Shown here: positions 42,764 to 62,205 of the stretch, one piece after another
How positions within the stretch are numbered: position 1 is the stretch's first letter
Layout: each line of letters opens with the position of its first letter
From: a virus
Reading direction: 5' to 3' (one strand)
Virus record (IMG/VR): IMGVR_UViG_3300033142_000925
Span: 16,784-80,783 of that record
DNA: 64,000 nucleotides
Translations under genes and position numbers: made by a program
Notes under the pieces: generated by a model
What the model was told of the DNA's origin: nothing
Seen by the model: only the letters and a program-made list of their open reading frames with translations
Databases searched by the model: none

Positions 42764-44158
42764 TTAGAACCAACCGAGATTAGCTGGACTGACATTTTTG
42801 ATGTAAGCGTGCTGCTCTTCTTTCTTCAGCGCCAAGGCACCAAATAAGAGCATGAGGAAAGGATACACGGCTTCATTTGTGGGATACAAATCGAATTTCA
42901 TTAATGGCAAAAATTGAAACCACTCTATCGCATCGTATATCTCATCCATGGTAAGGATGAAGATGTCAGATGTTCCGGGGAGGCTCGCATTGTCGTCAAC
43001 GATTGCATCTGCATCGCCGTCCACATAGGTTGAAAAATATCCCATGAAACGAACATCGCTGCCGTCGGCTGCACCCACTTTGGACCTGTATACCGCATAA
43101 GCGGTGATCGAGGCGTCAGGGGTAACCGATACGGAAAATACGTTCGTATCGCCGACAGTCGTAATAGTATCAGAATCTTCAGTGGAGGCAAGGCCCTCAC
43201 CATATCGATTCACTGCGGAAACTTTATAGTGATACTCACCAAGGTCCCCTGCTGCAAAGTACGAATCGCCGGTTGCTGTTCTGGTAATGCTGTTGATGGT
43301 GACCTGTGCAGGTCGAAGCGCTGTCAGGGTTGAAGCTACGGGAGCCGCACCTTCGTTGATGAATACGTCATCGAGCATTTCCAGTTTCCCGAATGGAGTC
43401 GGATACTCATTGAATATGGCAGCACCAACATCCTGACCTGACTGAAACCGCACGCGATCTCTGATCAAGTTCTGAAGATCCTGATGGACCATGGTGGAAG
43501 AAAGCAGCAAGCTACCTTTTCCATACTGATCACGAATCTGGCGTGAGCCATCATTGATCAGTTTTTCTACCGATGAACCGGAAGCAGTCGCCCCACGTGC
43601 ATCAAGCACATTGGATGTAGCCTGCTGTTTGATTCCTTTCGGCTGTTCGGGAAAGATTGTGTCATTCCCGTTAAACATTGCCTTCTCAACTTCGCGGATT
43701 ACCCACAAAGCTCCGGCATTCTGTTCAATGGTCAGGGCATTCTCGATCATGTTCGAGAGAGTCGCCTGCAAAGTCGCCTTTCGGAGAGTCTGCAAGTACT
43801 TGGCTGTCTCATACACACGAGCAATGGTCTGGTCAGCTTCCTGACTCTGGCCACCTTCAGGCACCCATGCTCCATCGCTGGAACCTACTGCCGTACGCTT
43901 GTCCCACTGGTGAACAGGGCTGGCTATGGGTTTCTTTTTCACCCGCTGGAAGAGGCGAGCCTCATCCTGCGACCACAACACGTTTACGAGCGTGTTTTCA
44001 AGGGATTCCGGGATCAATGCACGGCCACCAGCAAACCCGCTGGCGTCTACACCTGATCCGGCTTCTAACGCTTTAGTGAGTTCCTGTAGGACCTCAACGT
44101 TACCGAAGTCTCCGTGTCCCACGAAGTTCTGAGGGAATAGTTCAGGATTTATGTTCAT
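42764..44158 (-). CDS. Major capsid protein (SPO1/Twort-like)
   Basis: ELTKALEAG, GRAL.PESLE..L, EKAMFNG..PKGI, QFLPLMK.DL, LFGALALK; after protease and scaffold. Confidence 0.92.
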   Translation of the reverse strand: MNINPELFPQNFVGHGDFGNVEVLQELTKALEAGSGVDASGFAGGRALIPESLENTLVNVLWSQDEARLFQRVKKKPIASPVHQWDKRTAVGSSDGAWVPEGGQSQEADQTIARVYETAKYLQTLRKATLQATLSNMIENALTIEQNAGALWVIREVEKAMFNGNDTIFPEQPKGIKQQATSNVLDARGATASGSSVEKLINDGSRQIRDQYGKGSLLLSSTMVHQDLQNLIRDRVRFQSGQDVGAAIFNEYPTPFGKLEMLDDVFINEGAAPVASTLTALRPAQVTINSITRTATGDSYFAAGDLGEYHYKVSAVNRYGEGLASTEDSDTITTVGDTNVFSVSVTPDASITAYAVYRSKVGAADGSDVRFMGYFSTYVDGDADAIVDDNASLPGTSDIFILTMDEIYDAIEWFQFLPLMKFDLYPTNEAVYPFLMLLFGALALKKEEQHAYIKNVSPANLGWF

Positions 44159-44839
44159 TTAATTACCCTCCTTCATGAGCGCTTCAACCTTCTGGTCTAC
44201 CCGGTCATTCCGGTTTCCCAGTTGGTTCTTGTTGATGCGTCCCTCGATCATACCGGCCTCAGTGAGGTCGATCTTCCCGGCGCGGACCCATTCTCGTGAT
44301 TTCTGAAGCACGGTCATATTGTCGTACTCCACTTTCCCGCCTTCAAATCGGCTCTTATTCAGAACCTTGACGGACTGGCTTCGAACCGGAGTGCCCCCGA
44401 TCTGACGGATCATATCGGCTGTACTTTTTTCGAGTTTGGCAGTCATCAGGAGAACTTCTCCCTGACTCTTCACCATTTTCTCTACCCGGTTGAACTTTGC
44501 CTGCATGGACTTGCTTAGCTGCATGATGGTTTCATCCATCGCTTTAGTAAGCTGGCGCAGGAAAGGTTCGACATCAATTGCCGCAGCCGCGTTCGGATCT
44601 TCGGCAAGGATTTCAGAGATGGACTTTTCGTAATCCATATCCTCTTCTTCCTCTTCCTCAGACTCGTCTTCGTCTTCGGCATCTTTTGACTTGCCCTTGG
44701 GCTCGTCGTCATCTTTGGCCTTCCGAAGTGATTCTTCCGAATCGGATTCCAACGACTTCTGGAGGTCGGTCAAGGCGTCGTTGAAATCCTTTTCGATGAG
44801 TTCATCATCCAGAAGAACTTCTTGTATTGCTTCACTCAT
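44159..44839 (-). CDS. Scaffolding protein
   Basis: Acidic/coiled coil; many x-x-K-[AS] sites (LQKS, LRKA, YEKS, LTKA, LSKS, LEKS, LNKS, LQKS). Confidence 0.75.
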   Translation of the reverse strand: MSEAIQEVLLDDELIEKDFNDALTDLQKSLESDSEESLRKAKDDDEPKGKSKDAEDEDESEEEEEEDMDYEKSISEILAEDPNAAAAIDVEPFLRQLTKAMDETIMQLSKSMQAKFNRVEKMVKSQGEVLLMTAKLEKSTADMIRQIGGTPVRSQSVKVLNKSRFEGGKVEYDNMTVLQKSREWVRAGKIDLTEAGMIEGRINKNQLGNRNDRVDQKVEALMKEGN

Positions 44840-44865: not shown

Positions 44866-45663
44866 TTACCTTCCCGCCCCAACAACGTTAGGGATTTTCC
44901 GGGATAGGTAGTTGATAATTTTAGCTGCTGAATTGCCTTCATATCCTCTATCGTATACGAAGTTAAGCATGTCATTATAGCTACCAATCTTATTATCTCT
45001 GACTGCTTTTAAAAGGTCACCAAACATTCCCCGTAGTTCTTCCGGGGGAACCATATTGTCGACCGTTGATCCCTGAAGACTCTCAGGACTGAGGGCACGA
45101 CCGCCTGTAAATACAGACGCATCTACTCCACCACCCGCCATGAGTGCTTTAGCGAAAGCGGCGAACGGTACCATCTGAACACCACCAAGAGTCCCATCAT
45201 TGACGGGCCTATGTGTGATCGCGGTTTCGTCCCATATAACTTGCTTGATTGCATTCTCGCTCTTTTGGAGAATACCACCACCGATTGAAGCGCCGAGGCG
45301 CTTTGCCCCACTCTGGATATTCTTCCAAACCTTCTGTGCGATGTCGTTGGCCTGATACAGATAACCTTTTACAAGGGTCCTGTGATCTTTAGTGAACTTC
45401 ACTTCCAACGGTTCGCCGATGATGAATCCCGGATCATGTGTCGCTTTATGCTTGTGATCCCACGATAGAACACCGTGCGAGAGGAAGTAGTCGGCGGCTT
45501 TCTGTAAGGCCGCCATGTCTACGGTCTCTCCGTCCTGATCTTTCATCTCGTTAGAGGCTTGGAGATAGACTATCCACTGCCCATTTTCTTCGGCGCCCTT
45601 GATAAGGACATCGCTGAATGGGCTGTAGAATGGGTTGCTAAGCTGTGCAATTCCCTGTCTCAT
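44866..45663 (-). CDS. Prohead protease
   Basis: ASNEMKDQDGE, LSWDH, IIGEP, LGASIGG, AITHRPVN. Confidence 0.88.
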   Translation of the reverse strand: MRQGIAQLSNPFYSPFSDVLIKGAEENGQWIVYLQASNEMKDQDGETVDMAALQKAADYFLSHGVLSWDHKHKATHDPGFIIGEPLEVKFTKDHRTLVKGYLYQANDIAQKVWKNIQSGAKRLGASIGGGILQKSENAIKQVIWDETAITHRPVNDGTLGGVQMVPFAAFAKALMAGGGVDASVFTGGRALSPESLQGSTVDNMVPPEELRGMFGDLLKAVRDNKIGSYNDMLNFVYDRGYEGNSAAKIINYLSRKIPNVVGAGR

Positions 45664-46602: not shown

Positions 46603-47766
46603 CTAATTCCACGGGGTCGGTTTGATCAATTTTTCAGGATCGTCTATAGGCTTCTGAAGCCTTGCGCCCTCCCGCATAGCCGCCTCCATAGACGCTCTGA
46701 ACTTCGCATCGATGTCCTCAAACCCCTGAATGTACTTCACCCACGTACATCGACAGTGCGGGTGCTGAGTCCCAGCAGCTACCCACCAGTCAGCACGTCG
46801 GCGGCCATAGTTGTCTTTCCCCGGCCAGATCGCAGTGTACATTGTACCATCTATCATTACCTGATCGCCACTGTCAGGGGGTTCCGGCAATAGGACCACG
46901 ACCCTATCATTCACTTGACCCACACAAAACGGGCACGCCTCCGATGAGGATATGCCCTTCATGAATATCGTTTCATCCGGTCGCGCCCGGTCCATCTCTG
47001 TAATGAGTTGACCGTTGTTCATGGAGTTTCCGATCTCGGTCTCAGCTATACGCCGCCAGTCCCGATTCATCTCTCCGAACTTATCGAATAGATTCTCCCG
47101 GAGTTCCCGGTGACTCTGCCGATTCTTGATACCAGTTTGTAGGGTGTCATGGATCTTTTTGTACTGGTTCTGCTTCAGGTCCACAATCAACTCACCAGCG
47201 TGTTGCTGAGCAAAAGCTACGGTGTTCTGCCATAGCGGACCCTTCAGTTTGTTCATAGTGTCATCTACTGCATCCCGGACACTCAGATATCCGGCAGACA
47301 GAGAATCGTCAATGCTCATACCTTTGAGCAGCTTCCCCAGCGCAAGAGCGTGAGATGCGATCCGTTCCTCTTCTGGTGCATAGATATAATTGAATACCTT
47401 CAGGATGTCCCGCTTGATGATCTTCCACTGGCCTTTTGTCAACGGCTTCCCACTCTTTGGATCTATGAATATTCGGTTGTTCAACAGGAAGGGATCAGTC
47501 GAGGCTTTCGCCATGCCGATCCACTTCGAGGATATGACATTGTACATCTTGATCAGGTGCCGCTCGATACGGTCCTTGCTGAATGCTTCCAGTTCCCGGA
47601 CAGATCGAAACGGGGAGACCTCTTTCTGCTGTCTCTCAGAGTCGTATCCCAGCGCCTTGGTCAGCGCTGTTATTGCTTTGTCAAACTTCAATTCGGGATG
47701 GTGATGAAGGTTCTTGAGTTCAAGTACTATATGTGATTCACGAGTTTGAGAGCAAAGTTCACACAC
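46603..47766 (-). CDS. MuF / SPP1 gp7-like minor head protein
   Basis: DWRRIAETEI..MNNG, ACPFC, HPHCRCTW; GTG 47766 with GGAGG. Confidence 0.85.
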   Translation of the reverse strand: MCELCSQTRESHIVLELKNLHHHPELKFDKAITALTKALGYDSERQQKEVSPFRSVRELEAFSKDRIERHLIKMYNVISSKWIGMAKASTDPFLLNNRIFIDPKSGKPLTKGQWKIIKRDILKVFNYIYAPEEERIASHALALGKLLKGMSIDDSLSAGYLSVRDAVDDTMNKLKGPLWQNTVAFAQQHAGELIVDLKQNQYKKIHDTLQTGIKNRQSHRELRENLFDKFGEMNRDWRRIAETEIGNSMNNGQLITEMDRARPDETIFMKGISSSEACPFCVGQVNDRVVVLLPEPPDSGDQVMIDGTMYTAIWPGKDNYGRRRADWWVAAGTQHPHCRCTWVKYIQGFEDIDAKFRASMEAAMREGARLQKPIDDPEKLIKPTPWN

Positions 47767-47968
47767 GTCCGTGGCCCCTCCCTGCAAGGAAGGAACAATA
47801 GTTCAACCAGATCGAGGTATCCGTGGTCAGGTAGTCTTTTATCATTCTGCTACCCTCATCCATACTCCGATTCAGTGCGGCTTTAATATTTTTAGGGGGA
47901 GCTTTCCGGCCCATGTACTTACACCACTTTGCGAACCTGTCACCGGTTCTTAATGCTTCTGATCTCAT
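47759..47968 (-). CDS. Hypothetical protein
   Basis: 69 aa; overlaps both neighbours. Confidence 0.55.
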   Translation of the reverse strand: MRSEALRTGDRFAKWCKYMGRKAPPKNIKAALNRSMDEGSRMIKDYLTTDTSIWLNYCSFLAGRGHGRV

Positions 47969-48867
47969 GCTCCATACCTCTCCATATAGTTCCGATACCC
48001 TGACGAATGCTCCATCCTGAAGATGAAGTTATTCCGGGTACGCTTACTCGCGATCTGGTTCAGTAGGAATGCCTTGGCGAACGAATATGGAATCTTGATC
48101 TCCGCCTTCGCTGTCGCCCGTGTACGTTCCTTCTTTTTAACAATCTGCTTCACTCGGATCGTGAGGCTATCACCTTTATATTTCAGGTCCATGTCCTCAG
48201 CTTTCTTCGGGAGAATCCATTTCTTCTTCCCATTCGGTAACCCGGCTGTCAGCTTCGCAACCTTGGTTTTTATCATAGCACGAATATGAGAAGTAGACAG
48301 GTCCCCGGTCACTGACCAGCCGCCCATCCTCTTCTTTTCAGTCTTCACTCGGGACGCTTTCATAACCGGCAGCGCCGTGTCGTGCTTGCCTTCCTCATAG
48401 GTCCTGTATTCCTTGCCTTTCTTCGAGGTCTTTGTAATCGTCAGCTTGACCTTGGGCTTGGTAGAAAATCGTTCCTTCAATTGAATCAGTGACCGACCGA
48501 TCAGGTCCACAACTGCTTTCTTGTCACCAACAGGTGCGGGGGTTGATTTTACCCGGTCGACCACATCCTTATAGATTTGATGGGCCGTATCCGCTGGACC
48601 GTTCTTGATCGCTTCTACCAGACCCTCGAATCCTTTGATGTTCCGGGCCTGCATAACAGCGTCAACCTCGCTGCCAAGGTTGGTTGTCATTGCATAGTTG
48701 AAATATTCCCGGCCACGTCGCCACGAGTCAGCGAGTACCTGCTTTTCACCTTTCTGACCGCCCTCTACGACAACCCATTTCTTGCCGACCTTCTTACGGG
48801 TTGTCCCGTCGGCCCATGTGTGGGTTTCGCCCTGTGCGGCTGCCTTAGCTTTCAGTATCAGGTTCAT
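47965..48867 (-). CDS. Basic putative internal head protein
   Basis: Starts MNLILKA then GETHTWADG..RKKVGKKWV hairpin; Lys-rich. Confidence 0.6.
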   Translation of the reverse strand: MNLILKAKAAAQGETHTWADGTTRKKVGKKWVVVEGGQKGEKQVLADSWRRGREYFNYAMTTNLGSEVDAVMQARNIKGFEGLVEAIKNGPADTAHQIYKDVVDRVKSTPAPVGDKKAVVDLIGRSLIQLKERFSTKPKVKLTITKTSKKGKEYRTYEEGKHDTALPVMKASRVKTEKKRMGGWSVTGDLSTSHIRAMIKTKVAKLTAGLPNGKKKWILPKKAEDMDLKYKGDSLTIRVKQIVKKKERTRATAKAEIKIPYSFAKAFLLNQIASKRTRNNFIFRMEHSSGYRNYMERYGA

Positions 48868-50623
48868 CTTTCTTCCTATGAAGCGGTTCGTCGAAGATGG
48901 ATTCCATTCTCGCGATCCGGTCGTCGAATGCATTCTGCATAGCCTTCAGCAAAGCCATCTCAGATACGGTGGCATATACCATATTATAAACGCCCTGCGT
49001 CTCAACCTTGGTGATCGTGATAGAGGGGGCCCTCACTATAAACTCATGCTCATGTGCATGTTCAGATATGCCACTGGCCTCAGCCGCGCTATAGTTGACT
49101 TCGTTCACATCCTCAATCAGTTCGTCAATATCAATACCTTTGATCTTCTTGCTCTCACTGGTAAAGTCGTTGGCCAGAACAATGACAGTTCCTCCGGCAT
49201 TCGCGAATCCTTTTGCTGTTGACTCCTGAGTAGAAAATGAAGCCATGCCTACAGGAATCACATCCCCTACCTTCGCTACCTTCCAGTCATCATTACCTGT
49301 TCCCCTGTACAGTTCATTATGAGTAGCGGTCATCATTTTAGCCAAGACCACATCCCCTGTATTGTTGTAAGCTACTGACCCCGGATCGAGCCCGTCCCGT
49401 CGTTTGGTATCCGCTTCCTTTACAATAGATCGAGTTTCCCTAACATTATTTCCACGGACCCATTCACCAATAGTATTCAGATCGTCAGCGTCCCATTCAA
49501 GATCACTACGATCAGTCATGGTAAAATCTTCAAGGTCACCTCCGGCCTCTTCCTCAGCCTCATCCAATACTTTTTGTACCCAGTCCTCAGTACCAGATAT
49601 GCTCATACCATTATTGATCATCATGGAAAGCGCTTCACCTTCCTCAACTTCTATATAATCATTCGAATCTGAAAAGCTCCATACATCACTATCGGACAAA
49701 ATCGGATTTCCTTGATGCTCCCACCAATCCTTGATTTGATCTATATCCACCTCGCCATACTCATCAGTAGCATTATTATTGATATACGCAAAAGCCTCAG
49801 ATGTAGCTACAGCATCATCCCAATCAAGATCCCCTTCCATAGCAAGGCCCATTTCAAACCATTGACTATCATTGGAGTTATCGATAAAACCTTGAATATC
49901 CTCATTCGTTTTCAGGTGTTCACGAATCCATGTCCGAGCATCCAATCGGAGACCTTCGTTGCCGTAGTCCTCATCCTCATCTTCCCGGTCCATAACCGTG
50001 TTAATGATATGAATGGTTGCTCGTTTGATATCGTCTTCAGTAATCGGTTTTGGTGCTTCTTTCATATCGAAGTCAGCCGTATCCTCAAACCAACTCTCGG
50101 CCTTGTCCTGAATGAGTCCCGCCTTGCCGATTATATCATTCATCTTGTCTTCGCCATGCGTATCCAATGTATTTATCGCACGCTCTTTGAGATCCGCCGC
50201 AGATTCCCCGGACCCGCCGGTTACTACTTTCAGACCGGTGGATACCTCAGTCACCACCACGTCAGGGCCTACGCTGTTGTTTCTCTCAATCTCCCGGTGA
50301 ACCACAAACGACTTACCGAACTTATCGAATCTCTCCACAATAGCTTTGTCAGGTATTCGTATCGCCTCTTTAACAACATTAGTGGAACCCTCGTCCGGCT
50401 GCTTGTCCCGGAGAACGTACACACGGTTATCGCCCTTCGGTCCTTTCGGTACCGGAGCCGGGAGCATAACAAGGTCTTGATGGTTGATGATCGTGGGATT
50501 CTTTGGGGCCTGATCAGGGCGCACATAGAATGTCTGGATAAAAGGCTTTCCCTTCCTTGAGACCATTCGTTTTACTGGCACGAGCCCTTTCCGACTCATG
50601 GTTGCCTTGATCAGTAGTCGCAT
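48845..50623 (-). CDS. ADP-ribosyltransferase (R-S-E class, Alt/VIP2-like) multidomain protein
   Basis: C-terminal ELYRG, ASFST, EHEFIV motifs; N-terminal MRLLIKA tag; LLKA after ART domain. Confidence 0.75.
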   Translation of the reverse strand: MRLLIKATMSRKGLVPVKRMVSRKGKPFIQTFYVRPDQAPKNPTIINHQDLVMLPAPVPKGPKGDNRVYVLRDKQPDEGSTNVVKEAIRIPDKAIVERFDKFGKSFVVHREIERNNSVGPDVVVTEVSTGLKVVTGGSGESAADLKERAINTLDTHGEDKMNDIIGKAGLIQDKAESWFEDTADFDMKEAPKPITEDDIKRATIHIINTVMDREDEDEDYGNEGLRLDARTWIREHLKTNEDIQGFIDNSNDSQWFEMGLAMEGDLDWDDAVATSEAFAYINNNATDEYGEVDIDQIKDWWEHQGNPILSDSDVWSFSDSNDYIEVEEGEALSMMINNGMSISGTEDWVQKVLDEAEEEAGGDLEDFTMTDRSDLEWDADDLNTIGEWVRGNNVRETRSIVKEADTKRRDGLDPGSVAYNNTGDVVLAKMMTATHNELYRGTGNDDWKVAKVGDVIPVGMASFSTQESTAKGFANAGGTVIVLANDFTSESKKIKGIDIDELIEDVNEVNYSAAEASGISEHAHEHEFIVRAPSITITKVETQGVYNMVYATVSEMALLKAMQNAFDDRIARMESIFDEPLHRKKDEPDTES

Positions 50624-51055: not shown

Positions 51056-51393
51056 CAGTACTCACTCCTATCAAACTCTCCCGGAATTACGTTCAACTTC
51101 GCTGCGGAGATGCTTTCCTCTGCCATGATGCGGGCCTTCTGTAACGAGTCCCGCTCCCCCAACTTGTTTACATAGCGATCTTTCAGATCGTGGTACACTT
51201 CATCGTACGGTCCTTCCTTTTTCTGATCGAGCCGTTTTCGTAAAGCATCCATATCAGAGTTCAGTCGGTCGATCCCTTTATTGGCCGCTTCGATAACCTG
51301 TTCCTGTTCGCGAACAATGATAGCAGCTTTCGTATCCAGTTTTACCTTGACCGCATCGAGTTGGTCTGCGCTCTTCTCCGCCTGATTACGCAC
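51055..51393 (-). CDS. Coiled-coil hypothetical protein
   Basis: 112 aa helical; coupled to neighbours. Confidence 0.6.
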   Translation of the reverse strand: MRNQAEKSADQLDAVKVKLDTKAAIIVREQEQVIEAANKGIDRLNSDMDALRKRLDQKKEGPYDEVYHDLKDRYVNKLGERDSLQKARIMAEESISAAKLNVIPGEFDRSEY

Positions 51394-54300
51394 TTCGGGC
51401 CTCCTCTTCGTATTTGTTCAGCATACCGATAAATCCCTTATCATCCAATGCCGTTACCGACCGAGGATTGCCGATGATATTCATTTCTTTCCGCTTCGTG
51501 GCCATCAAGTCTTCAGACCGCATATCCATAGGGTTCACACCGGACAGAACATAGGTCGAAGTATCCCTATCCTGACCCTTCCTGAATATCCGGGCGTTCC
51601 GCTGATCAAATGCGGCTGCGCTGTCCGGTATATCCAAGTGAAAAGTGACCGATCCCCCAGCCTGTAAGTTATGGCCGGATTCGAGAGTCTTAGTCCCTAC
51701 AATGAACCTGAGCGGATTGCCCGGATCATTAAATGCGGCCTTAGTCTTTGCCATCTCTCCGGGACCGGTCTCACCGTGAATCATCGCAACGGACCCTACA
51801 CCAAACTCTTTCTCAAGTCTCTTCTGAGCCGTTCGCATAGCCTTCAGTACGGGTTTACCCGGCTGGGATACGTGAACAACTGCCTTCTCTCCGGGATGGT
51901 TATTCTTCATCGTGTCGATAATCGTATCGACCTTAGCATTACTCTCGGTATAGCCGTCAGATAGAATCGAATAGTTTCTGGAATCTCTACGAGCCGAAGC
52001 TCCGGGAAGTTTCTGTTCCCGCTCATCCCTATATTGCCTCTCACTTGCCGCATACGCTTTCCGCTGTGGAGCAGACATTGGAATACGGAGTGTATTGACC
52101 TTGTTCTCAACCGGTAGTTGATTCTTCTGCGTGTAAACCCAGTCTCCGGTCTCTTTCCTGAACGCATCGTTGGCAGCGTCCTGAAATATGCCGGTACCTT
52201 GGTTGAGTCCCTTATATCGCTTCTCAAAATCAGCCATTGAACCCATACCATGTTCAGGATCAATGAAGTTGATCTTCCTGTAGAGTTCCTTCTTTGACGT
52301 TTTGATGTTCGTACCTGACATAGCCATCTTCAGAGGAACGTCTGCGAGTTGATCTAAAGCCTTATATCTCCCAGCCGCACCAGTACCGGCAGTCATTTCA
52401 TGAATCTCATCTAAAACAACCATATCGTATCCGGCATCTTTCAGGATCGAAGCGTCTTCCCTGAGTGCATCCTGTGAAACGATATGAATACCGTCCTGTT
52501 CAAGGTGTCGGCGGTGACGTTCAGTCTTCGAAGTGTTGGAGGTCGACTGCCTGACGAGCTTCTGCATATCCTTATCAAGGAAAGTCTCGCGTTGTTTGTG
52601 GAAGTCGCCACGAGTACCTGACGGGGTTACTACCAGAATCTTCTTAGCTCCCTTATTAGCCATAGCATCCATGATCCCCGCATAGGCAATTCCTGTCTTT
52701 CCAATACCCGCTTCAAAGTCTAACAGAACCCTACCCTTCTCATTGAAGAAACGGAGTCCGGCTTCCTGTGCTGCATCGAACTTGATACTGTCCTTAATAC
52801 CCGGTGGTTTATATCCGGTATTTGATTCATGAGCCTTGATAGCTGCAAGATTATCCTTCTCTGCCGACTTGTCAGCAGCACCCTGAAAGAAGTTGTTCAG
52901 AGACTCTTTCGGAATCTCCATGACCAGCCGCTTAGCGCGCCCTTTCTTAACGGTTCGTATCGAATAGGTACCTTTCTTCAAACCGGCATTCTTAGCCCTG
53001 TCACGAGCCCGTGCAAGGTCCTTACCCATATCTACCTGTACAACATCAGCCGGTGGATCTTCCAGCGCGTTGATCATATGCGCGGCTGCTCTCAGAGAAC
53101 CTACAGCCGTACCCAGTGCGCGCTGTGCTGCGGTGATCTGCTTCAGAGCATGACCATTAGCTGAGGCCATGGACAGGATTGCTTCGGCATCGTCTTTGTC
53201 CCGCGCCAGTCCCCTAATATCATCAGCGTTGGCCAGTCGTTTCTTGGTTTCCTTCAATGCACGGTCAACGACTTTCTCACGTTCTGTGGCTACATACTCT
53301 TCAAGGGCCTTACGCACGACTTCGCCCTTACCATCCAATTGGATCTTTGCGGTGACCGCTCGGGCCACAGCTTCAATCCCCAGTTCCTTTACAGTGTCAG
53401 TCGTGAAAGTAGCACCGGAACCGTACACATCTCCGATCAATCCGTTCAATGCGGAGATTGCACCTTGGTCAACATGCCCGTTGATCGCCTGACTCTGAGC
53501 ATTGAGGATGTCATACATCTGAATATTCTTTGCTGTCTCGGCCTGATCCTTGACCTGTCTCTGGATCTCATCCATTTCACTGGTCGTGGCTGCGGCAAAC
53601 ACCGCTCCAACCTTCAGGTCGGAAGGAATGTCAGCACTCTCCGCACCGATGGCCTTAATCGCTTTCCTGAACTGCTTTCTGGCTGCCAGTACTTCAAGAG
53701 CCTTGTCCTTATCGAGTAAGGTCTTCAGTTCCGGTGCTGCGTTAGGGTCCTCGGGCATATAGTCTTTCATCAGGGTGTTGAGCGCTTCCCGCTCCACATT
53801 CTTGACTTGCTTCTGGACCGCTTTCTTGAGTTCCTTCTCAGACTGCTTATCAACTTCGTTTTCAATAGCCTTCTCATCCATGGTCTTAAACGCCTTTCGC
53901 GCTTCAACCATCTTCCGGGCCTTGTCCTCAAGTTCTTTCATCTGCTTAGCACTAATATTATCTCTGATCTCATCAGGGGTAACACCCAGAATATCTGTAA
54001 CCACCTCAGTATAGGCGGCTCGGGCTGTCTTTCGTGCTGCGTGCTGAACTTTACGGGTTGCTGCGGCCTCGCTGATCTCTTCCTTGGTCAGCGCCTTCGT
54101 TTCTTCTTTTTTCTTAGCCTCGATCCGTTTCCGCTTCACAGTATAGTCTTCACGGCTCATGATATTGTCAATCTTCAGGTGATTCAGTTTCCCACCGGCC
54201 CCGCCGACCACGACATAGCCGCCGTCACTGGTTCCCTGCAACAGGACCCTTGCACCCCGGATCGTAACCCAGCGCATTCCACGAGCTTTCACTTCATCGG

Positions 54301-56359
54301 CTGAGTAATATTTCTTACCCTCGCCGTTTGCTTTCATAAGATCACCCAGCCAGAAGAACTTGATCAGCTTATGATTGCGATGGAGAAACCATTGTCCGCT
54401 ATCGCTCTTGAGCAAGTCCCCTTCTCCGAATGATTTGTTCACTCCGAACCTGTCTACCAGATTCGTAATTCTCTGTTCCATAATTCGCCTCAGTTTCGGG
54501 TCTTCAATACCCGCAAGGATTACGCCTTTCTTAGACAGTACGTTTGTCAGTTGTTCACGGATATCATTATCACTCACGAGGCCGAACACCGAGGAAGCCG
54601 AACGGGAGGGATCTCGAAGACTCTCGACTTCGGTAACATCCCCACCAAATGAATCGCCTTTCGGAGCGCCCTGTGCCCTGTAGCGTAATGATCCACCATT
54701 GTCGATTCTCCATGCTCTCGCACCGTCCCATATAACATTATCATTATCCATACCCAGAACATCCCAGTTACTCACCAACGCGTCGGCCAGAAACCCATCC
54801 CGAAGCTGCTTCATAGCCTCAGACTGTTCATCTCCATAGAGGTCGGAAAGTGGTACGCCCTCAATATAGTCGGCAACCTGTACGAGCTTCCCCTCACTGT
54901 CGTGTGAAAGTTGAACATCAGGGACCGCCACACCGAGCGTTTTGTAGATTCGGTTCGCCATGTATTCATCTTTGAGATGACCTTCACCGGTTGAACGTTT
55001 CAGGACCTTCTCTTCACCATTGGCCAGCCTGACATGGGCTGCGCCTCCGGTAGTCCCTCCAAGATTCTTGAGGGTGGCATAATGTCCCATACCTCTGGGC
55101 CGCTTCCCACCATTATCAGGATATGTATAATGCCATCGACCGTTCTTGAAGTACTTATTGATATACTTTGACTTCTGTAGCTTCATCGATTCTTTAATCT
55201 CATCAGGTCCGAACAGGTGCATAGCGTATTTCAAGGAAAGCTCTTCGAATGCGGTTGTCATGCCTTCTGACTTACTCTTCATAACCTTCGCCGGGTTCAA
55301 TTTCATATAGTTGACATTCGGCCTTCCATGCGCTTTATAGTCCCAAGCCTTCGGCGCGTACTGGTCATCCCATGCCACGGTCTCAGTCACCTCGAATCCA
55401 TATTTCGAATATATCTTAGGTAACACGTCACCCAGACAATCCAATGACTTCGCTCCATTCTTTATAGCCGTCTTCATGATTGAAGCGCCTTCATGGGCAC
55501 CCGGTTCAGAGAAAACAGATATAAGGTCTCCGTCACCGGTAACCGCATAGCCGCTCTTACCTGTCTCGGAGATATACGCCTTGGCACGCTTGCCCTCATA
55601 TTCTTTCGCAGTGTAGGAAGTAACAAACGCATCGAACTCTTTTGGAGTCTTTGCGTCTCGAACAGGTACAAACTCAGCTAAGGGAACATTGGAATAAGTT
55701 GTGACCAGTTTGATAGCGTCCTTCTTATCCACGAAGGTCGCCAGTTCTTTTTTAGCTGGCTTACGCCCTTTCTTGTCACCGGGGTATTCATAGTACCAGC
55801 GTCCATCCTTGCCCCGCCATCGTTTGGTATACTTTGCCTTCTCCAAGTGACCGATACTGTCATTATCCGCAGTCAGAATGTATGTTTTAGACTTCCGTAA
55901 TTTCTTAGGCGGCTTCAGAGTCAACCCTTTCCGGTCCTTCAACATCTGTTTGAAGGTTGCCATATCTACCTGATCACAGGACCCGTAATAATCTGATCGG
56001 TCATACTGTCTCTGGTATGCTGCCTTGGCTTCTACCTGACTGTTGAACCCGAGCATACACTTGTCTTCATCATAGTTACCGGTATATGGATCATTTTGGT
56101 GTACGATATATACCTTATCGGAGAACTTGCTGGGTCCCATATATACATCCACATGATCACCGTCGACACCGAGAGTAAGACGCACATAGCCATAAGCAAT
56201 ATGCATAAAAGTACGCCACATATTCCCATGATCGTCCTCCCCCTGCCTGTAAGTTCCTCGTTCATTCTCAATTGAGATGGGTAATCCCTGAAATGTGCAT
56301 TTGCCTTGGAGCTTGCGACTGCGCCAGTCTACTGCATTAGTAATAATGCCTCGTTTCAT
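51386..56359 (-). CDS. Polyvalent protein: InPase + GNAT + PI3/4K-HipA-like kinase + SNF2 helicase
   Basis: YGY...GVDGDHVDV..YDEDKCMLGF; DLISVFS..GAKSLDC..LPKIYSKYGF; EYMANRIY..DALVSNWD..RIDNG; EAGIGKT, DEIH, SGT, GHNLQ, QRNARIFRKGQ. Confidence 0.85.
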   Translation of the reverse strand: MKRGIITNAVDWRSRKLQGKCTFQGLPISIENERGTYRQGEDDHGNMWRTFMHIAYGYVRLTLGVDGDHVDVYMGPSKFSDKVYIVHQNDPYTGNYDEDKCMLGFNSQVEAKAAYQRQYDRSDYYGSCDQVDMATFKQMLKDRKGLTLKPPKKLRKSKTYILTADNDSIGHLEKAKYTKRWRGKDGRWYYEYPGDKKGRKPAKKELATFVDKKDAIKLVTTYSNVPLAEFVPVRDAKTPKEFDAFVTSYTAKEYEGKRAKAYISETGKSGYAVTGDGDLISVFSEPGAHEGASIMKTAIKNGAKSLDCLGDVLPKIYSKYGFEVTETVAWDDQYAPKAWDYKAHGRPNVNYMKLNPAKVMKSKSEGMTTAFEELSLKYAMHLFGPDEIKESMKLQKSKYINKYFKNGRWHYTYPDNGGKRPRGMGHYATLKNLGGTTGGAAHVRLANGEEKVLKRSTGEGHLKDEYMANRIYKTLGVAVPDVQLSHDSEGKLVQVADYIEGVPLSDLYGDEQSEAMKQLRDGFLADALVSNWDVLGMDNDNVIWDGARAWRIDNGGSLRYRAQGAPKGDSFGGDVTEVESLRDPSRSASSVFGLVSDNDIREQLTNVLSKKGVILAGIEDPKLRRIMEQRITNLVDRFGVNKSFGEGDLLKSDSGQWFLHRNHKLIKFFWLGDLMKANGEGKKYYSADEVKARGMRWVTIRGARVLLQGTSDGGYVVVGGAGGKLNHLKIDNIMSREDYTVKRKRIEAKKKEETKALTKEEISEAAATRKVQHAARKTARAAYTEVVTDILGVTPDEIRDNISAKQMKELEDKARKMVEARKAFKTMDEKAIENEVDKQSEKELKKAVQKQVKNVEREALNTLMKDYMPEDPNAAPELKTLLDKDKALEVLAARKQFRKAIKAIGAESADIPSDLKVGAVFAAATTSEMDEIQRQVKDQAETAKNIQMYDILNAQSQAINGHVDQGAISALNGLIGDVYGSGATFTTDTVKELGIEAVARAVTAKIQLDGKGEVVRKALEEYVATEREKVVDRALKETKKRLANADDIRGLARDKDDAEAILSMASANGHALKQITAAQRALGTAVGSLRAAAHMINALEDPPADVVQVDMGKDLARARDRAKNAGLKKGTYSIRTVKKGRAKRLVMEIPKESLNNFFQGAADKSAEKDNLAAIKAHESNTGYKPPGIKDSIKFDAAQEAGLRFFNEKGRVLLDFEAGIGKTGIAYAGIMDAMANKGAKKILVVTPSGTRGDFHKQRETFLDKDMQKLVRQSTSNTSKTERHRRHLEQDGIHIVSQDALREDASILKDAGYDMVVLDEIHEMTAGTGAAGRYKALDQLADVPLKMAMSGTNIKTSKKELYRKINFIDPEHGMGSMADFEKRYKGLNQGTGIFQDAANDAFRKETGDWVYTQKNQLPVENKVNTLRIPMSAPQRKAYAASERQYRDEREQKLPGASARRDSRNYSILSDGYTESNAKVDTIIDTMKNNHPGEKAVVHVSQPGKPVLKAMRTAQKRLEKEFGVGSVAMIHGETGPGEMAKTKAAFNDPGNPLRFIVGTKTLESGHNLQAGGSVTFHLDIPDSAAAFDQRNARIFRKGQDRDTSTYVLSGVNPMDMRSEDLMATKRKEMNIIGNPRSVTALDDKGFIGMLNKYEEEARSA

Positions 56360-56850
56360 TCGACACCCTCCAACATCTTATTCGAATAGGTGGTCTTCCT
56401 CTTAGCGCTCCAATCTTTCCAGACTCCATTCAGACCGTAACCATATTTAAAATCCCCCGGAGCTAACGGGTTACTGGGTAGGCTGTTCTTGACATTGAAC
56501 GTCACCTCCCCAAAGTCGGCATACATCACCACGTACTTACCCGGATACTTCCTGCTCATAGCCGCACCGTACTTCTTAGCATCGGCGACCTTCCAGCCTT
56601 TCTTATTAGCGTCAATCCTCACGGATACATTGCCGGTGGTCCCACTACTCGAAGGTTTACCGGAGATTTCTAAAGGCATAGGCTTCTTATGCGCGGATTC
56701 ACGCCGCTTCGTTGGTGGGGGAGACTTAGGTCGGGGCGCGCTCTTTTTCTTCTTAGCCCCGTAGTAGTACTTATAGTTCCCCGGCGTGCCAGTCCGTTTC
56801 GTGTAATTAGACTTCAACAACTCGATGGGATCAACAATTATAATTCTCAT
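56356..56850 (-). CDS. Basic putative internal head protein
   Basis: MRIIIVDPIELLKS-NYTKRTGTPGNYKYYY tag. Confidence 0.6.
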   Translation of the reverse strand: MRIIIVDPIELLKSNYTKRTGTPGNYKYYYGAKKKKSAPRPKSPPPTKRRESAHKKPMPLEISGKPSSSGTTGNVSVRIDANKKGWKVADAKKYGAAMSRKYPGKYVVMYADFGEVTFNVKNSLPSNPLAPGDFKYGYGLNGVWKDWSAKRKTTYSNKMLEGVE

Positions 56851-56874: not shown

Positions 56875-57735
56875 TTAGCTCCGTGGCTTTTTTACATTCT
56901 TAACCGGTGTGTGTTTTGTGGTTGACTCAGGTTTGCTCGACCCTATCTCTTCGGGTTTCACAATGATGGTCCTGCGACCAAAATTGTCATGAGCGCGGCT
57001 GCCTGAACCTGACGCACTGGCATTGTAGTTTTTGTGAGGTGCTTTCGCGCCCTTCACTCGACCCTTGCCATCAACACGTTTGGTGTCGGCGTACTTGCCC
57101 TCATCTTCGGGCTTGCTTGAGCCGATCATCCTTTCCGCTGCCATCTTCGCGAACTTCATTCGTTCGGCATGACCTTCGTAGGGAATCTTGCTCTTAGTCT
57201 TACCACTCACATTTGAGAGGCTTGCCGGATGGTCTGCTTTCTCCAAAGGTTCAATCTCTCCGGGAACCAGAATCAGTGCAAATCTTGTTTTCATATCACC
57301 CTCCAATAGTGACTTGTTCACGTTTTCATTTTCCATCTCGATGAGATGGGTATAGTATTTCGAATCTTCGTGCAAGTGATCCAACGCAATCTCTCGCGCT
57401 ACCCCTTTGCTTGAAGTGTGTTCCATTTCAATCTTGATCCCGAGCTTCAATTCTTTCGGGTCAACTTCCATTGTATCGCCTTCCTTGTGAAGACCTTCTT
57501 TCTTCAGGTGGTCAACTGCCGCTTTGGATTTAGAAAGACTGCTTACAATCGACTTAACATCGCGCGGACTCATTTTATACTTGGCTCCTATCGCATTGAG
57601 CGTAGACTCTGAAGGATTCGAGTTCTTGAGAAACAACTGAGCAATAGCTTTCGCAGTCATCTTGTATCCAATCTCATCACCACAAGAACCGGTCACAGGT
57701 CCTGTAGCTACGGACTCAAGTTTCTTCTTATTCAT
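56875..57735 (-). CDS. DUF5661-like domain protein
   Basis: ELKLGIKIEMEHT....AREIALDHL.ED.KYYTHL; flanked by LSKS, VNKS, LEKA. Confidence 0.7.
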   Translation of the reverse strand: MNKKKLESVATGPVTGSCGDEIGYKMTAKAIAQLFLKNSNPSESTLNAIGAKYKMSPRDVKSIVSSLSKSKAAVDHLKKEGLHKEGDTMEVDPKELKLGIKIEMEHTSSKGVAREIALDHLHEDSKYYTHLIEMENENVNKSLLEGDMKTRFALILVPGEIEPLEKADHPASLSNVSGKTKSKIPYEGHAERMKFAKMAAERMIGSSKPEDEGKYADTKRVDGKGRVKGAKAPHKNYNASASGSGSRAHDNFGRRTIIVKPEEIGSSKPESTTKHTPVKNVKKPRS

Positions 57736-57871
57736 CGTCATCCGCCGGATCAAATCCTAATATCTGAACAACCTCTTTCGGGGTTGACTCCTGCTTGTCA
57801 TCATCCGGGGAAGTATCGGGAGTCCATGCAACTTCCTCGGCTGATCCGATATACACATCAGGTGCTTTCAA
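57728..57871 (-). CDS. 47-aa acidic protein (absent from ORF track)
   Basis: GGAGG + TTG: MKAPDVYIGSAEEVAWTPDTSPDDDKQESTPKEVVQILGFDPADDDE; fills gap and overlaps both neighbours. Confidence 0.6.
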   Translation of the reverse strand: MKAPDVYIGSAEEVAWTPDTSPDDDKQESTPKEVVQILGFDPADDDE

Positions 57872-58748
57872 CTTTCCGCCTCCACTTTTCAAAGATCGCC
57901 GGGTTCACATAGCTGCCCAGCGCCACCACTCGGGTGTTGCCCAGTTGCTTAGCTACTGCATTGCCCACAGCAATCACAGCCTTCTTATACTCGACCATGG
58001 TCTTAGGGGCATTACCCCTCATTGCTTTCATAGCAACCTCAGTTCCGAGGTGGGTTCTGAAATCCTTGCTCTGGAACTTCGCCCCGTCTCCCAGTCGGTG
58101 GGTATATCTCAAAAGGCCGTCGCCGGTAACACCGAACAATCGACCTGTTTTTCCTGTCTCACGCTTCCTCTTCAGAAGCATCTTTGCCACACTCGCATCG
58201 GTTACGGGGATTTCCAAGTCGATCCCTTTCTTCCCGACGAACTTCAGGACCACACCAGAATCGGTACGTTTTACGTGTCGCCCTTCCAGTGTCGTAGCGC
58301 CGAATGCGTCGACGCTCCCTTTCGTATTCTTCTCGCTGCCCGGTCTGATCCCCGTACTCATGATCAACCATAAGACCGTCGCCGCCTCGTTCTTCCCCTT
58401 CACGTCGGCAGCAACCTCTTGATTGATCCCGTCGAAGGCTTTGTTCAGCGCTCGTATCCTTGCAAACTTTTCCTTGCTTGCCGAATCCACATGAGCCGGA
58501 TTGTAGATGTACTGCGTTCGCCCTTTGGCATCGTCGCCCTTCACCCACAGCTTGGATTTCGGATCGCTGAAATACTGAAGGTTCGTCCACGCGGGAGGAA
58601 CCTTGAACTTGTTCTGTATCCGGGCGGGCAGCTTGTCCCTGTTCTTCACAGGAACCCATCTCCCCTCGGCTATCTTTACATACTTGCCGCTCTTGCTTTT
58701 CGCACCGATGGCGGCCCGTTTTGCTTTGGTGAAGATGATCAGTTTCAT
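57858..58748 (-). CDS. DNA topoisomerase IB (poxvirus/bacterial type)
   Basis: VPPAWT, DAKGRTQYIY, GIRPG, FGATTL, FVGKKG, KDFRT, LGNT....GSY; catalytic R-K-R-N-Y intact. Confidence 0.93.
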   Translation of the reverse strand: MKLIIFTKAKRAAIGAKSKSGKYVKIAEGRWVPVKNRDKLPARIQNKFKVPPAWTNLQYFSDPKSKLWVKGDDAKGRTQYIYNPAHVDSASKEKFARIRALNKAFDGINQEVAADVKGKNEAATVLWLIMSTGIRPGSEKNTKGSVDAFGATTLEGRHVKRTDSGVVLKFVGKKGIDLEIPVTDASVAKMLLKRKRETGKTGRLFGVTGDGLLRYTHRLGDGAKFQSKDFRTHLGTEVAMKAMRGNAPKTMVEYKKAVIAVGNAVAKQLGNTRVVALGSYVNPAIFEKWRRKVEST

Positions 58749-59102: not shown

Positions 59103-60671
59103 CTACTCCACCAATATGCGGAGTGTCCGCTCTTTAGATTTAGTTAGGGTCTGTAATTCCTTCAAAGACTTCTCAGCCTTATCGTCATCTTTTTCCGTTC
59201 TGGTAGAATCTGGTTGTTCGGCGGCCTCTTCAGCCTCCTGACCCTGAGCGCTTTCGCCCTGATCTTCCTGACCAAATCCACCCATTCCCATGCCCTGTTC
59301 AGCCATTTCCTTCTGCTGCTCGGCCTGTTTGTCACCCATGGCCATCTGTACAGCCTGAGCATTCATAGGCATCTCTGACCAGTCTTCTTTGAAAGGGTCG
59401 AGTCCGTCCTCTTCACGGACCTCATCGATTGTTCTCCATCCCATGATCTGCTTGTTTCGGACTTCGGCTTTCTTCTGTTCGTCCTCACGTTCGAGACCGA
59501 CAAACTTAAACCGGTATTTCTGAGTGACCTTCCTGATCACCTTGTTGACGTGTTGTTCTGTGAATCCCAGCATTGAAGCAAGGCCCCGGTCCTTAGAGGA
59601 TTGTATCCGGGGCTCTGCATTCTCACCGATGATCGATGTGCTGTCGTCTGTTTTTATTCCAAGCTCTGCAAGGTCCATCGAGAATACAGCACCCACGAGC
59701 GAAGATACGAACATCATGGTTTTATGATATTCCATATCCTTGTTCGACGTGGACAGGTTCTTGAAGTCGACCCCCACACCGTCCTTTCCACTCGGTAAGA
59801 TAGGGATCGAGAATTGCGCTCCCGATCCGGTCATAGCTGCATACCAATAATTTCGTATGCTATCCAATTGAGGCTTGGCCACATCACCCATGACAGAAAT
59901 GAAACCTTTCGGTACACGGTCCTTAATCAACTGATCCCGGATGTAATTGTATCCAAATAGCAGCGTGGTAATAATGTTGATACACATCTCAACCGGGCTG
60001 TATCCATAACCACGATACTTGACATCAGACCGCTTGAACTTGTAGTCGAATATCAGATTCTCGCTCTTGTACTCTGCATATATTTTCTCATCGATCTTCT
60101 GAACGAAGCGGACCCCTTGGCCCCATCGCTTTTCGTCTATGACGCGTCCGATGGTTGCTCCGTCTAACCCCCAGAACGCCACCGGTTCACCCAGTCTGTT
60201 ATACTGGATTTCCGTGGCGACTTGATCGATTTCATACGTGTCGCGAACCAACATAGAAACATAATCCATGAAGTCGTCTTCACGTTCCCCGTCAAATACG
60301 AATCCAGTCTGCTCTATGAAGTTGGTCAACTCTATTATTTCACTTTCGTTCTCTTTCTCACCTCGGTACTCTTGCGTCCGGTTCTCAATCTCAAATCGAA
60401 AGCCGCGATCATTCTGTTCTGTCGCGTACTTCAGAAAGGGGAGAATCTGGTCCTGTCGGGTATTGATAATTCCATTGATCAACGGCAACTGACCAACAGA
60501 TCGTCTGAGCGTATCAAAGTTAAGTTGAAGTATCCGTTCCCGGACTCCCTGCGCTCCGCCCCAGAGCCATGTCTGGACCCTTGGATCGACGAGTTGACTG
60601 GTAAGTTTTCTGATTGTTGCATCCTCGTTAAAGGATACGGCTGTATTTGATTTCTTCCTTTTTCTTGCCAT
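59103..60671 (-). CDS. Portal protein
   Basis: IINTRQDQI, LVRDTYEIDQ, LDGATI, YGYSPVE, KDMEY, SKDRGL, TIDEVREEDGL.P; start MARKRKK with GGAGG. Confidence 0.93.
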   Translation of the reverse strand: MARKRKKSNTAVSFNEDATIRKLTSQLVDPRVQTWLWGGAQGVRERILQLNFDTLRRSVGQLPLINGIINTRQDQILPFLKYATEQNDRGFRFEIENRTQEYRGEKENESEIIELTNFIEQTGFVFDGEREDDFMDYVSMLVRDTYEIDQVATEIQYNRLGEPVAFWGLDGATIGRVIDEKRWGQGVRFVQKIDEKIYAEYKSENLIFDYKFKRSDVKYRGYGYSPVEMCINIITTLLFGYNYIRDQLIKDRVPKGFISVMGDVAKPQLDSIRNYWYAAMTGSGAQFSIPILPSGKDGVGVDFKNLSTSNKDMEYHKTMMFVSSLVGAVFSMDLAELGIKTDDSTSIIGENAEPRIQSSKDRGLASMLGFTEQHVNKVIRKVTQKYRFKFVGLEREDEQKKAEVRNKQIMGWRTIDEVREEDGLDPFKEDWSEMPMNAQAVQMAMGDKQAEQQKEMAEQGMGMGGFGQEDQGESAQGQEAEEAAEQPDSTRTEKDDDKAEKSLKELQTLTKSKERTLRILVE

Positions 60672-60696
60672 GGGTATCTGGTACCTCCACAACTTG

Positions 60697-60705
60697 ATTA
60701 TAACA
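60697..60705 (-). promoter_or_regulatory. Extended -10 promoter candidate for portal operon
   Basis: TGTTATAAT between terminator and portal RBS. Confidence 0.55.
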
Positions 60706-60733
60706 TGATAGTCCACTCAAACAAAAGGGCATG

Positions 60734-62101: not shown

Positions 62102-62205
62102 CCGTTCTCTCTGAACTTCACAAGCCGATTGACCACCTGATCCACAGCCTTGTCCACTGCTTTCCGTAGTTCCGCATCCTGCTTAATATCAATCGTCAGT
62201 TTCAC
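62098..62205 (-). CDS. 35-aa hypothetical protein (absent from ORF track)
   Basis: GTGA overlaps at both ends, GGAGG RBS; MKLTIDIKQDAELRKAVDKAVDQVVNRLVKFRENG. Confidence 0.45.
   Translation of the reverse strand: MKLTIDIKQDAELRKAVDKAVDQVVNRLVKFRENG

Follow-up and report, generated by a model that had tools for sequence, protein, structure and literature searches.

A phage polyvalent protein with K-[AS] sites at its domain junctions: a probable capsid-cargo polyprotein of the prohead protease

How could a phage separate several enzymes that it makes as one giant chain, if that chain carries no peptidase of its own? The question is raised by a 1657-residue polyvalent protein encoded among the head genes of a phage, in a 64,000-nucleotide stretch of IMG/VR virus record IMGVR_UViG_3300033142_000925 (positions 16,784 to 80,783 of that record; this whole stretch is called the window below). 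From the placement, statistics and conservation of a short motif, L-x-K↓[AS], we argue that the protein is probably a capsid-cargo polyprotein, which the phage's own head-maturation protease would process in trans to give four enzymes and a set of small, mostly acidic peptides.

Domains and junction sites of the polyprotein

The gene is a single open reading frame (ORF), read from ATG to stop:

51386..56359, minus strand: polyvalent protein (polyprotein) ORF, 1657 residues, 184 kDa

Its ATG overlaps the stop codon of the upstream gene (ATGA). A first-pass annotation, made by a model from the sequence, had placed a 1657-residue ORF here and had described K-[AS] sites at the junctions of its InPase, GNAT, kinase and SNF2 domains, with hairpins in front of the GNAT and the kinase. 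The ORF is real, with the minus strand now added, and all seven sites stand at the residues that had been named: LRK↓S (K156), LEK↓A (K174), VMK↓S (K361), LQK↓S (K396), VNK↓S (K642), LLK↓S (K651) and LMK↓A (K676), where the arrow marks the putative scissile bond. The four domains and both hairpins also hold, InPase and SNF2 by Pfam, GNAT and kinase by fold, and the hairpins as two-stranded β-hairpins predicted by AlphaFold2 (AF2; strands 179–182/188–191 and 401–405/408–412).

The number of sites exceeds what the composition of the protein would give. Measured against composition-preserving shuffles, residues 1–700 contain seven copies of [LMIVF]xK[AS] (2.1 ± 1.4 in shuffles, with 8/2000 shuffles reaching seven) and five of LxK[AS] (0.7 expected; z = 5.4). 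For residues 701–1657, [LMIVF]xK[AS] is not enriched (four observed vs 3.9 in shuffles).

The InPase lies at residues 18–141 (Pfam PF18823, E=1.3e-39) within a confidently predicted segment (predicted local distance difference test, pLDDT, >85 for residues 20–145), and its region matches minor head, virion structural and DarB-like antirestriction families in PHROGs. At the other end of the chain, SNF2/ResIII occupies residues ~1201–1440 (Pfam PF00176, E=1.4e-12) and Helicase_C residues 1476–1595, with GIGKT at 1218 and DEIH at 1317. Neither the GNAT nor the kinase domain had a significant match in Pfam or among PDB sequences, the best being a GNAT chain at E=0.62, and both were recognised by fold from AF2 models. 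In a model of residues 1–720 built with 30 homologues, residues 420–640 form a kinase fold with pLDDT >90, for which Foldseek gave 180 matches at E<=1e-3, including H. pylori CtkA, RioK1, actin-fragmin kinase and Vps34; K454, E465, D533, D540/N541 and D553 are nearly invariant among the homologues, in a pattern that would fit a kinase active site. Residues 217–361 form a GNAT fold (pLDDT 91.8 in a second model, built with a multiple alignment of 61 sequences), for which every top Foldseek match is a GNAT acetyltransferase and the ESM Atlas returned only unnamed viral clusters. For the middle region (677–1190) the ESM Atlas gave no match, and neither the 'RWVTIRG' module at its start nor the helical region that follows has a family.

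This set of domains and the place of the gene between portal and protease match the definition of phage-type polyvalent proteins, the class to which the first reading had assigned the protein; these join several unrelated enzyme domains and are predicted to be delivered with the DNA (Iyer, Burroughs, Anand, de Souza, Aravind 2017, J Bacteriol; PMC5512222). The likeness extends to the unrelated domains, the InPase and SWI2/SNF2 signatures and the neighbourhood of phage head genes. In that work, however, domain release is ascribed to an embedded zincin-like MPTase, and the analogy with RNA-virus polyproteins is drawn on that basis. The 1657-residue protein differs in having neither an MPTase nor any other peptidase domain detectable by Pfam or PHROGs, so that the release route of Iyer 2017 is not available to it, and in carrying instead a motif of the prohead-protease type at every junction. 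Nor does the paper hold the hairpin tag and junction grammar described here, 'hairpin' being used there only for InPase and ArdC-N, and a literature search found neither such a tag nor prohead-protease sites at the junctions of polyvalent proteins described. Internal translation starts, considered as another source of separate products, were rejected, as no Met follows any junction.

Since each linker is bracketed by two sites, complete cleavage is predicted to give four enzymes and small peptides:

55892..56359, minus strand: predicted product 1, InPase, residues 1–156, 18.1 kDa, ending at LRK↓S (K156)
55838..55891, minus strand: predicted acidic linker peptide, residues 157–174 (18 residues) between K156 and K174, pLDDT <50, isoelectric point (pI) 5.4
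55277..55837, minus strand: predicted product 2, basic β-hairpin tag (residues 175–192) and GNAT (217–361), 21.0 kDa, ending at VMK↓S (K361)
55172..55276, minus strand: predicted acidic linker peptide, residues 362–396 (35 residues) between K361 and K396, pLDDT <50, pI 5.6
54434..55171, minus strand: predicted product 3, basic β-hairpin tag (residues 397–414) and kinase fold (420–640), 27.2 kDa, ending at VNK↓S (K642)
54332..54433, minus strand: predicted 9-residue spacer (residues 643–651, ending LLK↓S) and 25-residue hairpin peptide (residues 652–676, ending LMK↓A)
51386..54331, minus strand: predicted product 4, 'RWVTIRG' module, helical middle and SNF2 helicase, residues 677–1657, 107.8 kDa

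Judged by the site positions, the initial count of four effectors would need to be extended, since peptides of 18, 35, 9 and 25 residues are predicted besides the four enzymes. By computed pI, three of these four peptides are acidic (4.4–5.6) and the 25-residue hairpin peptide is basic (9.7); among the large products three of four are basic (9.0–9.4), and the kinase product is near neutral (7.0). The acidity of the predicted linker peptides recalls other phages, in which acidic propeptides are removed before the DNA is packaged.

In the AF2 model none of the sites falls within the confidently folded parts of InPase, GNAT and kinase, in agreement with the first reading. K156 and K174 are inside residues 146–177, and K361 and K396 inside 359–397, both segments with pLDDT <50; K361 lies two residues beyond the GNAT C-terminal helix, and K642 follows the last helix of the kinase. 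K651 falls within a short predicted strand, just upstream of the 25-residue hairpin peptide (predicted strands 657–661/664–668), and K676 is in a segment, residues 670–720, that has pLDDT <50 when folded, as here, without its downstream partner. Two more copies of the motif, LKK↓A846 and VRK↓A1017, lie in the helical region before the SNF2 core, at positions kept in most homologues; if used, K846 and K1017 could split the 108-kDa product into pieces of ~19, 18 and 70 kDa.

The motif in the head module

The polyprotein gene lies in a head module that is encoded entirely on the minus strand, in the order portal, topoisomerase-IB-like protein, DUF5661 protein, 164-residue protein, polyprotein, several unassigned genes, MuF-like protein, protease, scaffold and major capsid protein (MCP). 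Four of these genes bear on the meaning of the motif:

59103..60716, minus strand: portal protein, 537 residues (Pfam PF04860, phrog_12)
44866..45663, minus strand: prohead (head maturation) protease, 265 residues (phrog_1028, E=1.1e-21)
44159..44839, minus strand: scaffolding protein, 226 residues (phrog_15087)
42764..44158, minus strand: MCP, 464 residues (phrog_752, E=1.5e-58; Pfam SU10_MCP)

Across the head module, [LMIVF]xK[AS] occurs 49 times against 19.3 ± 4.3 expected, a number reached by 0/1000 shuffles, and for the remaining 12.5 thousand residues encoded in the window the count is 29, with 21.6 expected. In the scaffold, 226 residues hold eight L/M-x-K↓[AS] sites (0.9 expected; 0/500 shuffles reach eight), and the z-scores for LxK[AS] are 10.3 for the head module and 12.3 for the scaffold, next to the 5.4 of polyprotein residues 1–700. 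Control motifs with R or E at P1, another residue at P1', a non-hydrophobic P3 or reversed order showed no enrichment.

In the MCP, which can be aligned to those of SPO1, phi812 and A511 at ~25–29% identity, LTK↓A at K29 directly precedes the conserved N-arm; in the portal, LTK↓S stands 11 residues before the C-terminus; and the protease, whose presumed catalytic Ser lies in a GASIGG stretch and which gave no match to the PDB by phmmer, contains four copies, one of which, FAK↓A (residue 172), is followed by a copy of the MCP N-arm. After this FAK↓A, residues 172–197 of the protease resemble the N-arm at MCP residues 29–55 (ALxAGxGVDAxxFxGGRALxPESL), and such a copy within the protease also occurs in SPO1, Touem01, Mecenats66 and A511. 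Through this copy the protease may dock in the shell in the manner of an MCP N-arm; alternatively, the copy may be a site for self-cleavage or a decoy.

The same picture is found beyond the window. Scaffolds in five related IMG/VR loci have 8–10 sites (34–43 per 1000 residues), and the motif pattern recurs in the cultured myophages Mecenats66 and Touem01, in SPO1 and in Listeria phage A511. The start of the mature A511 capsid protein reportedly comes from N-terminal sequencing. In GenBank DQ003638.2 the A511 capsid mat_peptide begins after ...ALK↓S (K23↓S24), at a site homologous to K29↓A30 of the window MCP. On the basis of this annotation and of the scaffold and MCP pattern, we regard L-x-K↓S/A as the signal at which proteases of this lineage cleave, and L-x-K↓[AS] is likely to be the cleavage motif of the prohead protease encoded here; a literature search for the cleavage specificity of the SPO1/A511-type protease returned nothing. 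SPO1/A511/Twort-like phages share with the window a homologous MCP with K↓[SA] right before the conserved N-arm, but in those phages the motif is, so far as we found, known for capsid maturation only, and its use at the junctions of a cargo polyprotein would be the new element.

Junctions among homologues

To follow the junctions through related proteins, we compared ~28 homologues, in which variable cassettes stand between InPase and SNF2. The first-pass annotation had proposed conservation of the sites, and gain or loss of domains exactly at them, as checks of its reading; both were seen. Almost all homologues have LKK↓S at the InPase end. The kinase comes after LEK↓A and a hairpin, with a site immediately behind it, and in front of the RWVTIRG module stand LLK↓S, the 25-residue peptide and LEK↓A, the last arrangement being kept by ~30 homologues as [LLK↓S]-xxGxWYLxxxGxxxRFYWFxxLEK↓A. 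The motif stands within 10 residues upstream of 28/31 distinct hairpins (29/32 regular-expression matches, one hairpin being counted twice), with a spacer of 0–4 residues. A site lies near 78/88 tested domain edges, and site density is 16.9 per 1000 residues in linkers vs 2.7 in annotated domains, figures that shared ancestry inflates. As one ORF whose inter-domain junctions each bear a conserved putative protease motif in an accessible linker, the protein qualifies operationally as a viral polyprotein.

A relative with 83% identity (P0002, L001:10001-15349, IMG/VR UViG_3300043219_000219) has five of the sites in place, with changes at P3, P2 and P1' while the K stays. Between its InPase and GNAT this protein also holds an extra cassette of ~110 residues, which contains a DGNHR motif and is flanked by the sites LKK↓A and MQK↓A, and its GNAT tag is of the 'KRMPIG..GKWVxI' type in place of the KYxKR hairpin. 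The extra cassette matched no Pfam family, and a ParB-like identity, guessed from the DGNHR motif, was left unsupported by that search.

Cassettes are exchanged between the sites. In homologues these include Zeta-toxin/AAA_33 kinase, DUF5661, S-AdoMet lyase, NUDIX, DUF7178 and DUF3293 domains; minimal homologues have the InPase joined straight to the spacer and helicase; and the InPase-less proteins P0057, P0061 and P0064 open with a short leader ending at a K651-type site. ORF61 of Morganella phage Mecenats66, a head-module 'helicase', opens with MKRLMIK↓A directly before a WITVHP motif, that is, at a K676-type site, with Met at P3 as in the scaffold of the same phage. DUF5661 appears both as a separate site-flanked gene in the window and as an internal cassette in P0004 and P0008, an instance of fission and fusion at such sites. 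The GNAT behaves similarly: an exhaustive search with residues 197–361 gave 2939 relatives, many of them stand-alone proteins of 130–260 residues and others within giant proteins. Stand-alone relatives carry leaders such as MRLVLK↓A, and one relative (P0084) still has LVRLVIK↓A downstream of another site, as a 'fossil' leader inside the chain.

Proposed processing, its alternatives and neighbouring cargo candidates

On the reading that we favour, the polyprotein would be made late, together with the head proteins, as suggested by translational coupling and by the position of the gene, with the portal gene on one side and those for protease, scaffold and MCP on the other, and would be incorporated into the procapsid. 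There the head-maturation protease would cut it in trans after Lys in L/M/V-x-K↓S/A, the same signal by which it would degrade the scaffold, remove the 29-residue MCP propeptide and trim the portal and itself. Cutting would free the InPase (18 kDa), hairpin-GNAT (21 kDa), hairpin-kinase (27 kDa) and RWVTIRG-SNF2 helicase (108 kDa), and the peptides of 18, 35, 9 and 25 residues would be excised and either expelled or retained like the internal peptides of T4. The freed enzymes would then remain in the head, enter the host with the DNA and act early in take-over or counter-defence, a role that we infer from the domain types and from the homologue cassettes (S-AdoMet lyase, NUDIX and Zeta-like kinase). 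More speculatively, the basic β-hairpin at the new N-termini would most likely serve as a retention or ejection tag by binding DNA or the inner capsid.

Parts of this scheme have precedents. In T4, the internal proteins IPI-III and Alt have a capsid-targeting leader that is removed by the prohead protease gp21 at L/I-x-E↓, the motif at which gp21 also cuts capsid and core proteins. The present phage likewise encodes a head protease, its candidate cargo shares a motif with the scaffold and the MCP propeptide, neighbouring genes have short leaders ending in that motif, and the predicted peptides are comparable to T4 internal peptides. The differences are that T4 uses separate genes, a single N-terminal cut, Glu at P1 and gp21, whereas the present protein is a chain of four enzymes in which each linker has two sites and P1 is Lys, and the window protease is of the SPO1/A511 head-module lineage and not of that of gp21. 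In phiKZ-type giant phages, gp175 or gp245 cuts at S/A/G-x-E, and some proteins are cut at several sites; the substrates there are mostly non-enzymatic inner-body or ejection proteins, with another motif and protease, whereas the cassettes here are swappable enzymes. Passages in the literature on phiKZ, 201phi2-1 and SPN3US describe processing of head and ejection proteins by the prohead protease (PMC5694885, PMC7411985, PMC10052503).

Several observations weigh against the proposed processing. The N-terminus of the polyprotein itself (MKRGIITNA...) has no leader ending in K↓[AS] that would target it to the procapsid. Copies of the motif also occur within folded or helical regions (K127 and K159 in the MCP; K846, K1017 and K1506 in the polyprotein); these are presumably uncut, so that cleavage is not defined by sequence alone. 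The A511 site has Leu at P2, not P3. The rule also has exceptions, as K↓G or K↓H closes some of the leaders in one related locus. Shared ancestry inflates the nominal P value of the homologue comparison along with its counts, and, because most hairpins carry the motif upstream, conservation at those places may partly reflect a single module of linker plus hairpin. Finally, the phage itself is uncultured, and the whole protein lacks a close cultured homologue: megablast with the gene at 51386-56359 matched no cultured phage, the tblastn matches of the whole protein were all distant, to helicases or InPases, and the helicase is 21.6% identical to its nearest counterpart in a cultured-phage head module. 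A related-locus search with the whole protein led to one locus, which lacks capsid genes; with the protease as query, the search succeeded.

Among the alternatives, partial processing fares best, though we think it unlikely. Here the protein would be packaged and some sites used, for example K651/K676 to free the helicase, while InPase, GNAT and kinase would stay one tri-functional chain, or the sites next to the hairpins would be protected. Not every motif copy is cut in T4 and phiKZ, and the K651/K676 pair with its spacer is the most conserved junction and the sole one in minimal homologues; K651 moreover lies in a predicted strand, and K361 just two residues past the GNAT C-terminal helix. 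Against this, the InPase-end LKK↓S and the kinase-flanking sites are likewise kept in almost all homologues, and they fall in segments with pLDDT <50.

An uncleaved 184-kDa chain, in which L-x-K-[AS] and hairpin form a structural or docking connector (to scaffold, protease, portal or DNA), appears to us quite improbable. P1 DarB offers the model: like it, the polyprotein is a large protein with an SNF2-type helicase, DarB is a packaged, head-associated antirestriction protein that probably acts on incoming DNA, and the InPase region, alone in the chain, matches the 'DarB-like antirestriction' PHROG. DarB is, however, an N6-adenine methyltransferase fused to an SNF2-type helicase, and the 1657-residue protein has no methyltransferase domain by Pfam, a different architecture and its own N-terminal cassettes. 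One conserved module would account for the motif lying just upstream of 28/31 distinct hairpins, and according to Iyer 2017 (PMC5512222) neither the N4 vRNAP nor the polyvalent proteins ArdC/TraC1 of plasmids are processed on transfer. A connector, however, would not call for conserved sites at domain C-terminal ends with no hairpin following (K156, K361 and K642), for a spacer between K↓[AS] and hairpin that varies from 0 to 4 residues, for shorter homologues that begin at sites, or for the same motif saturating the scaffold and marking the MCP propeptide, whose cleavage is annotated in A511. With the C-terminal-end sites, the variable spacer and the scaffold saturation unexplained, the connector explanation fails on these three.

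It is very improbable that the protein is no virion cargo at all but a late cytoplasmic fusion of helicase and enzymes for replication, recombination or defence evasion that sits in the head operon by chance and never meets the protease: SNF2 helicases are indeed common among phage replication-module genes, but the position between portal and protease is kept in Mecenats66 and related contigs, the InPase matches virion and minor-head PHROGs, and a motif enrichment confined to the head module would stay unexplained. To cleavage after injection, by a host or co-injected protease, we give hardly any weight: Iyer 2017 (PMC5512222) considers such processing of polyvalent proteins, but this one has no peptidase domain by Pfam, its motif is that of the scaffold and MCP propeptide, and in related phages the processing of those two takes place within the procapsid.

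Polyvalent proteins are common throughout the phages. If processing in trans by the prohead protease is correct, the separation of their enzymes, so far explained only with an embedded peptidase, would in this case fall to the capsid-maturation protease, acting on a defined and conserved junction signal. It follows from the reading where each cut should fall and how large each fragment should be; as trypsin-based virion proteomics is blind to cuts after Lys, such cuts may have been overlooked for that reason. It would also provide a catalogue of candidate injected anti-defence enzymes, comprising InPase, GNAT, kinase and SNF2 here and S-AdoMet lyase, NUDIX and Zeta-like kinase in relatives, suggest a design principle for loading foreign proteins into phage heads, and, through gene fusion and fission at protease sites, offer an evolutionary route by which sets of cargo could be shuffled.

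The genes around the polyprotein include further candidates of this kind, listed here with other genes of the setting:

57858..58748, minus strand: topoisomerase-IB-like protein, two genes after the portal, leader MKLIIFTK↓A (Pfam PF01028, E=7e-20)
56875-57753, minus strand: DUF5661 protein, domain at residues 95–143 between LSK↓S75 and VNK↓S147
56356..56850, minus strand: 164-residue protein, 13-residue leader MRIIIVDPIELLK↓S (ending LLK↓S), then the same type of basic hairpin
48845..50623, minus strand: 592-residue protein, leader MRLLIK↓A and a basic hairpin-like stretch, LLK↓A near the C-terminal end
47965-48933, minus strand: 322-residue protein, leader MNLILK↓A, probable start M23 (48867)
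46603..47787, minus strand: MuF/SPP1-gp7-like minor head protein, weak match (phrog_115, E=2e-4; Pfam Phage_Mu_F, E=0.056)
25696-27426: tail sheath

In the topoisomerase-IB-like, 592-, 322- and 164-residue proteins, a short hydrophobic leader ending in the motif is followed by a basic 'KWVxV' or hairpin stretch, and by analogy these leaders look like T4-style capsid-targeting leaders. The 592-residue protein matched neither Pfam nor PHROGs.

A broader proposal follows the same lines: a portable 'grammar' of short hydrophobic leader or linker, L-x-K↓S/A site and basic β-hairpin (of the KYxKRxxxxGxWxYxY or KWVxI type) might load enzymes into heads as a general, hitherto undescribed cargo-delivery system of phages with SPO1/HK97-type proteases. 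We offer it tentatively, and it may well prove too wide. Were it true, recombination could bring enzyme cassettes of any kind into the head module, each as a separate gene or as part of a polyprotein; a cassette would be co-packaged on one targeting event, cut in trans, held by its hairpin on the DNA or capsid wall and ejected, and the resolution of polyvalent proteins that lack a peptidase would be explained. A literature search for virion proteomics of Mecenats66 found none.

Several smaller observations concern the setting of the module. The MuF-like gene is placed as is the 'minor head protein' of Mecenats66, and a related-locus search with its product returned no locus. A second topoisomerase gene lies upstream of the portal (62202-63101, minus strand; phrog_6247, E=1.7e-103), in addition to the topoisomerase-IB-like gene downstream of it. 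The tail sheath gene identifies the virus as a contractile-tailed phage.

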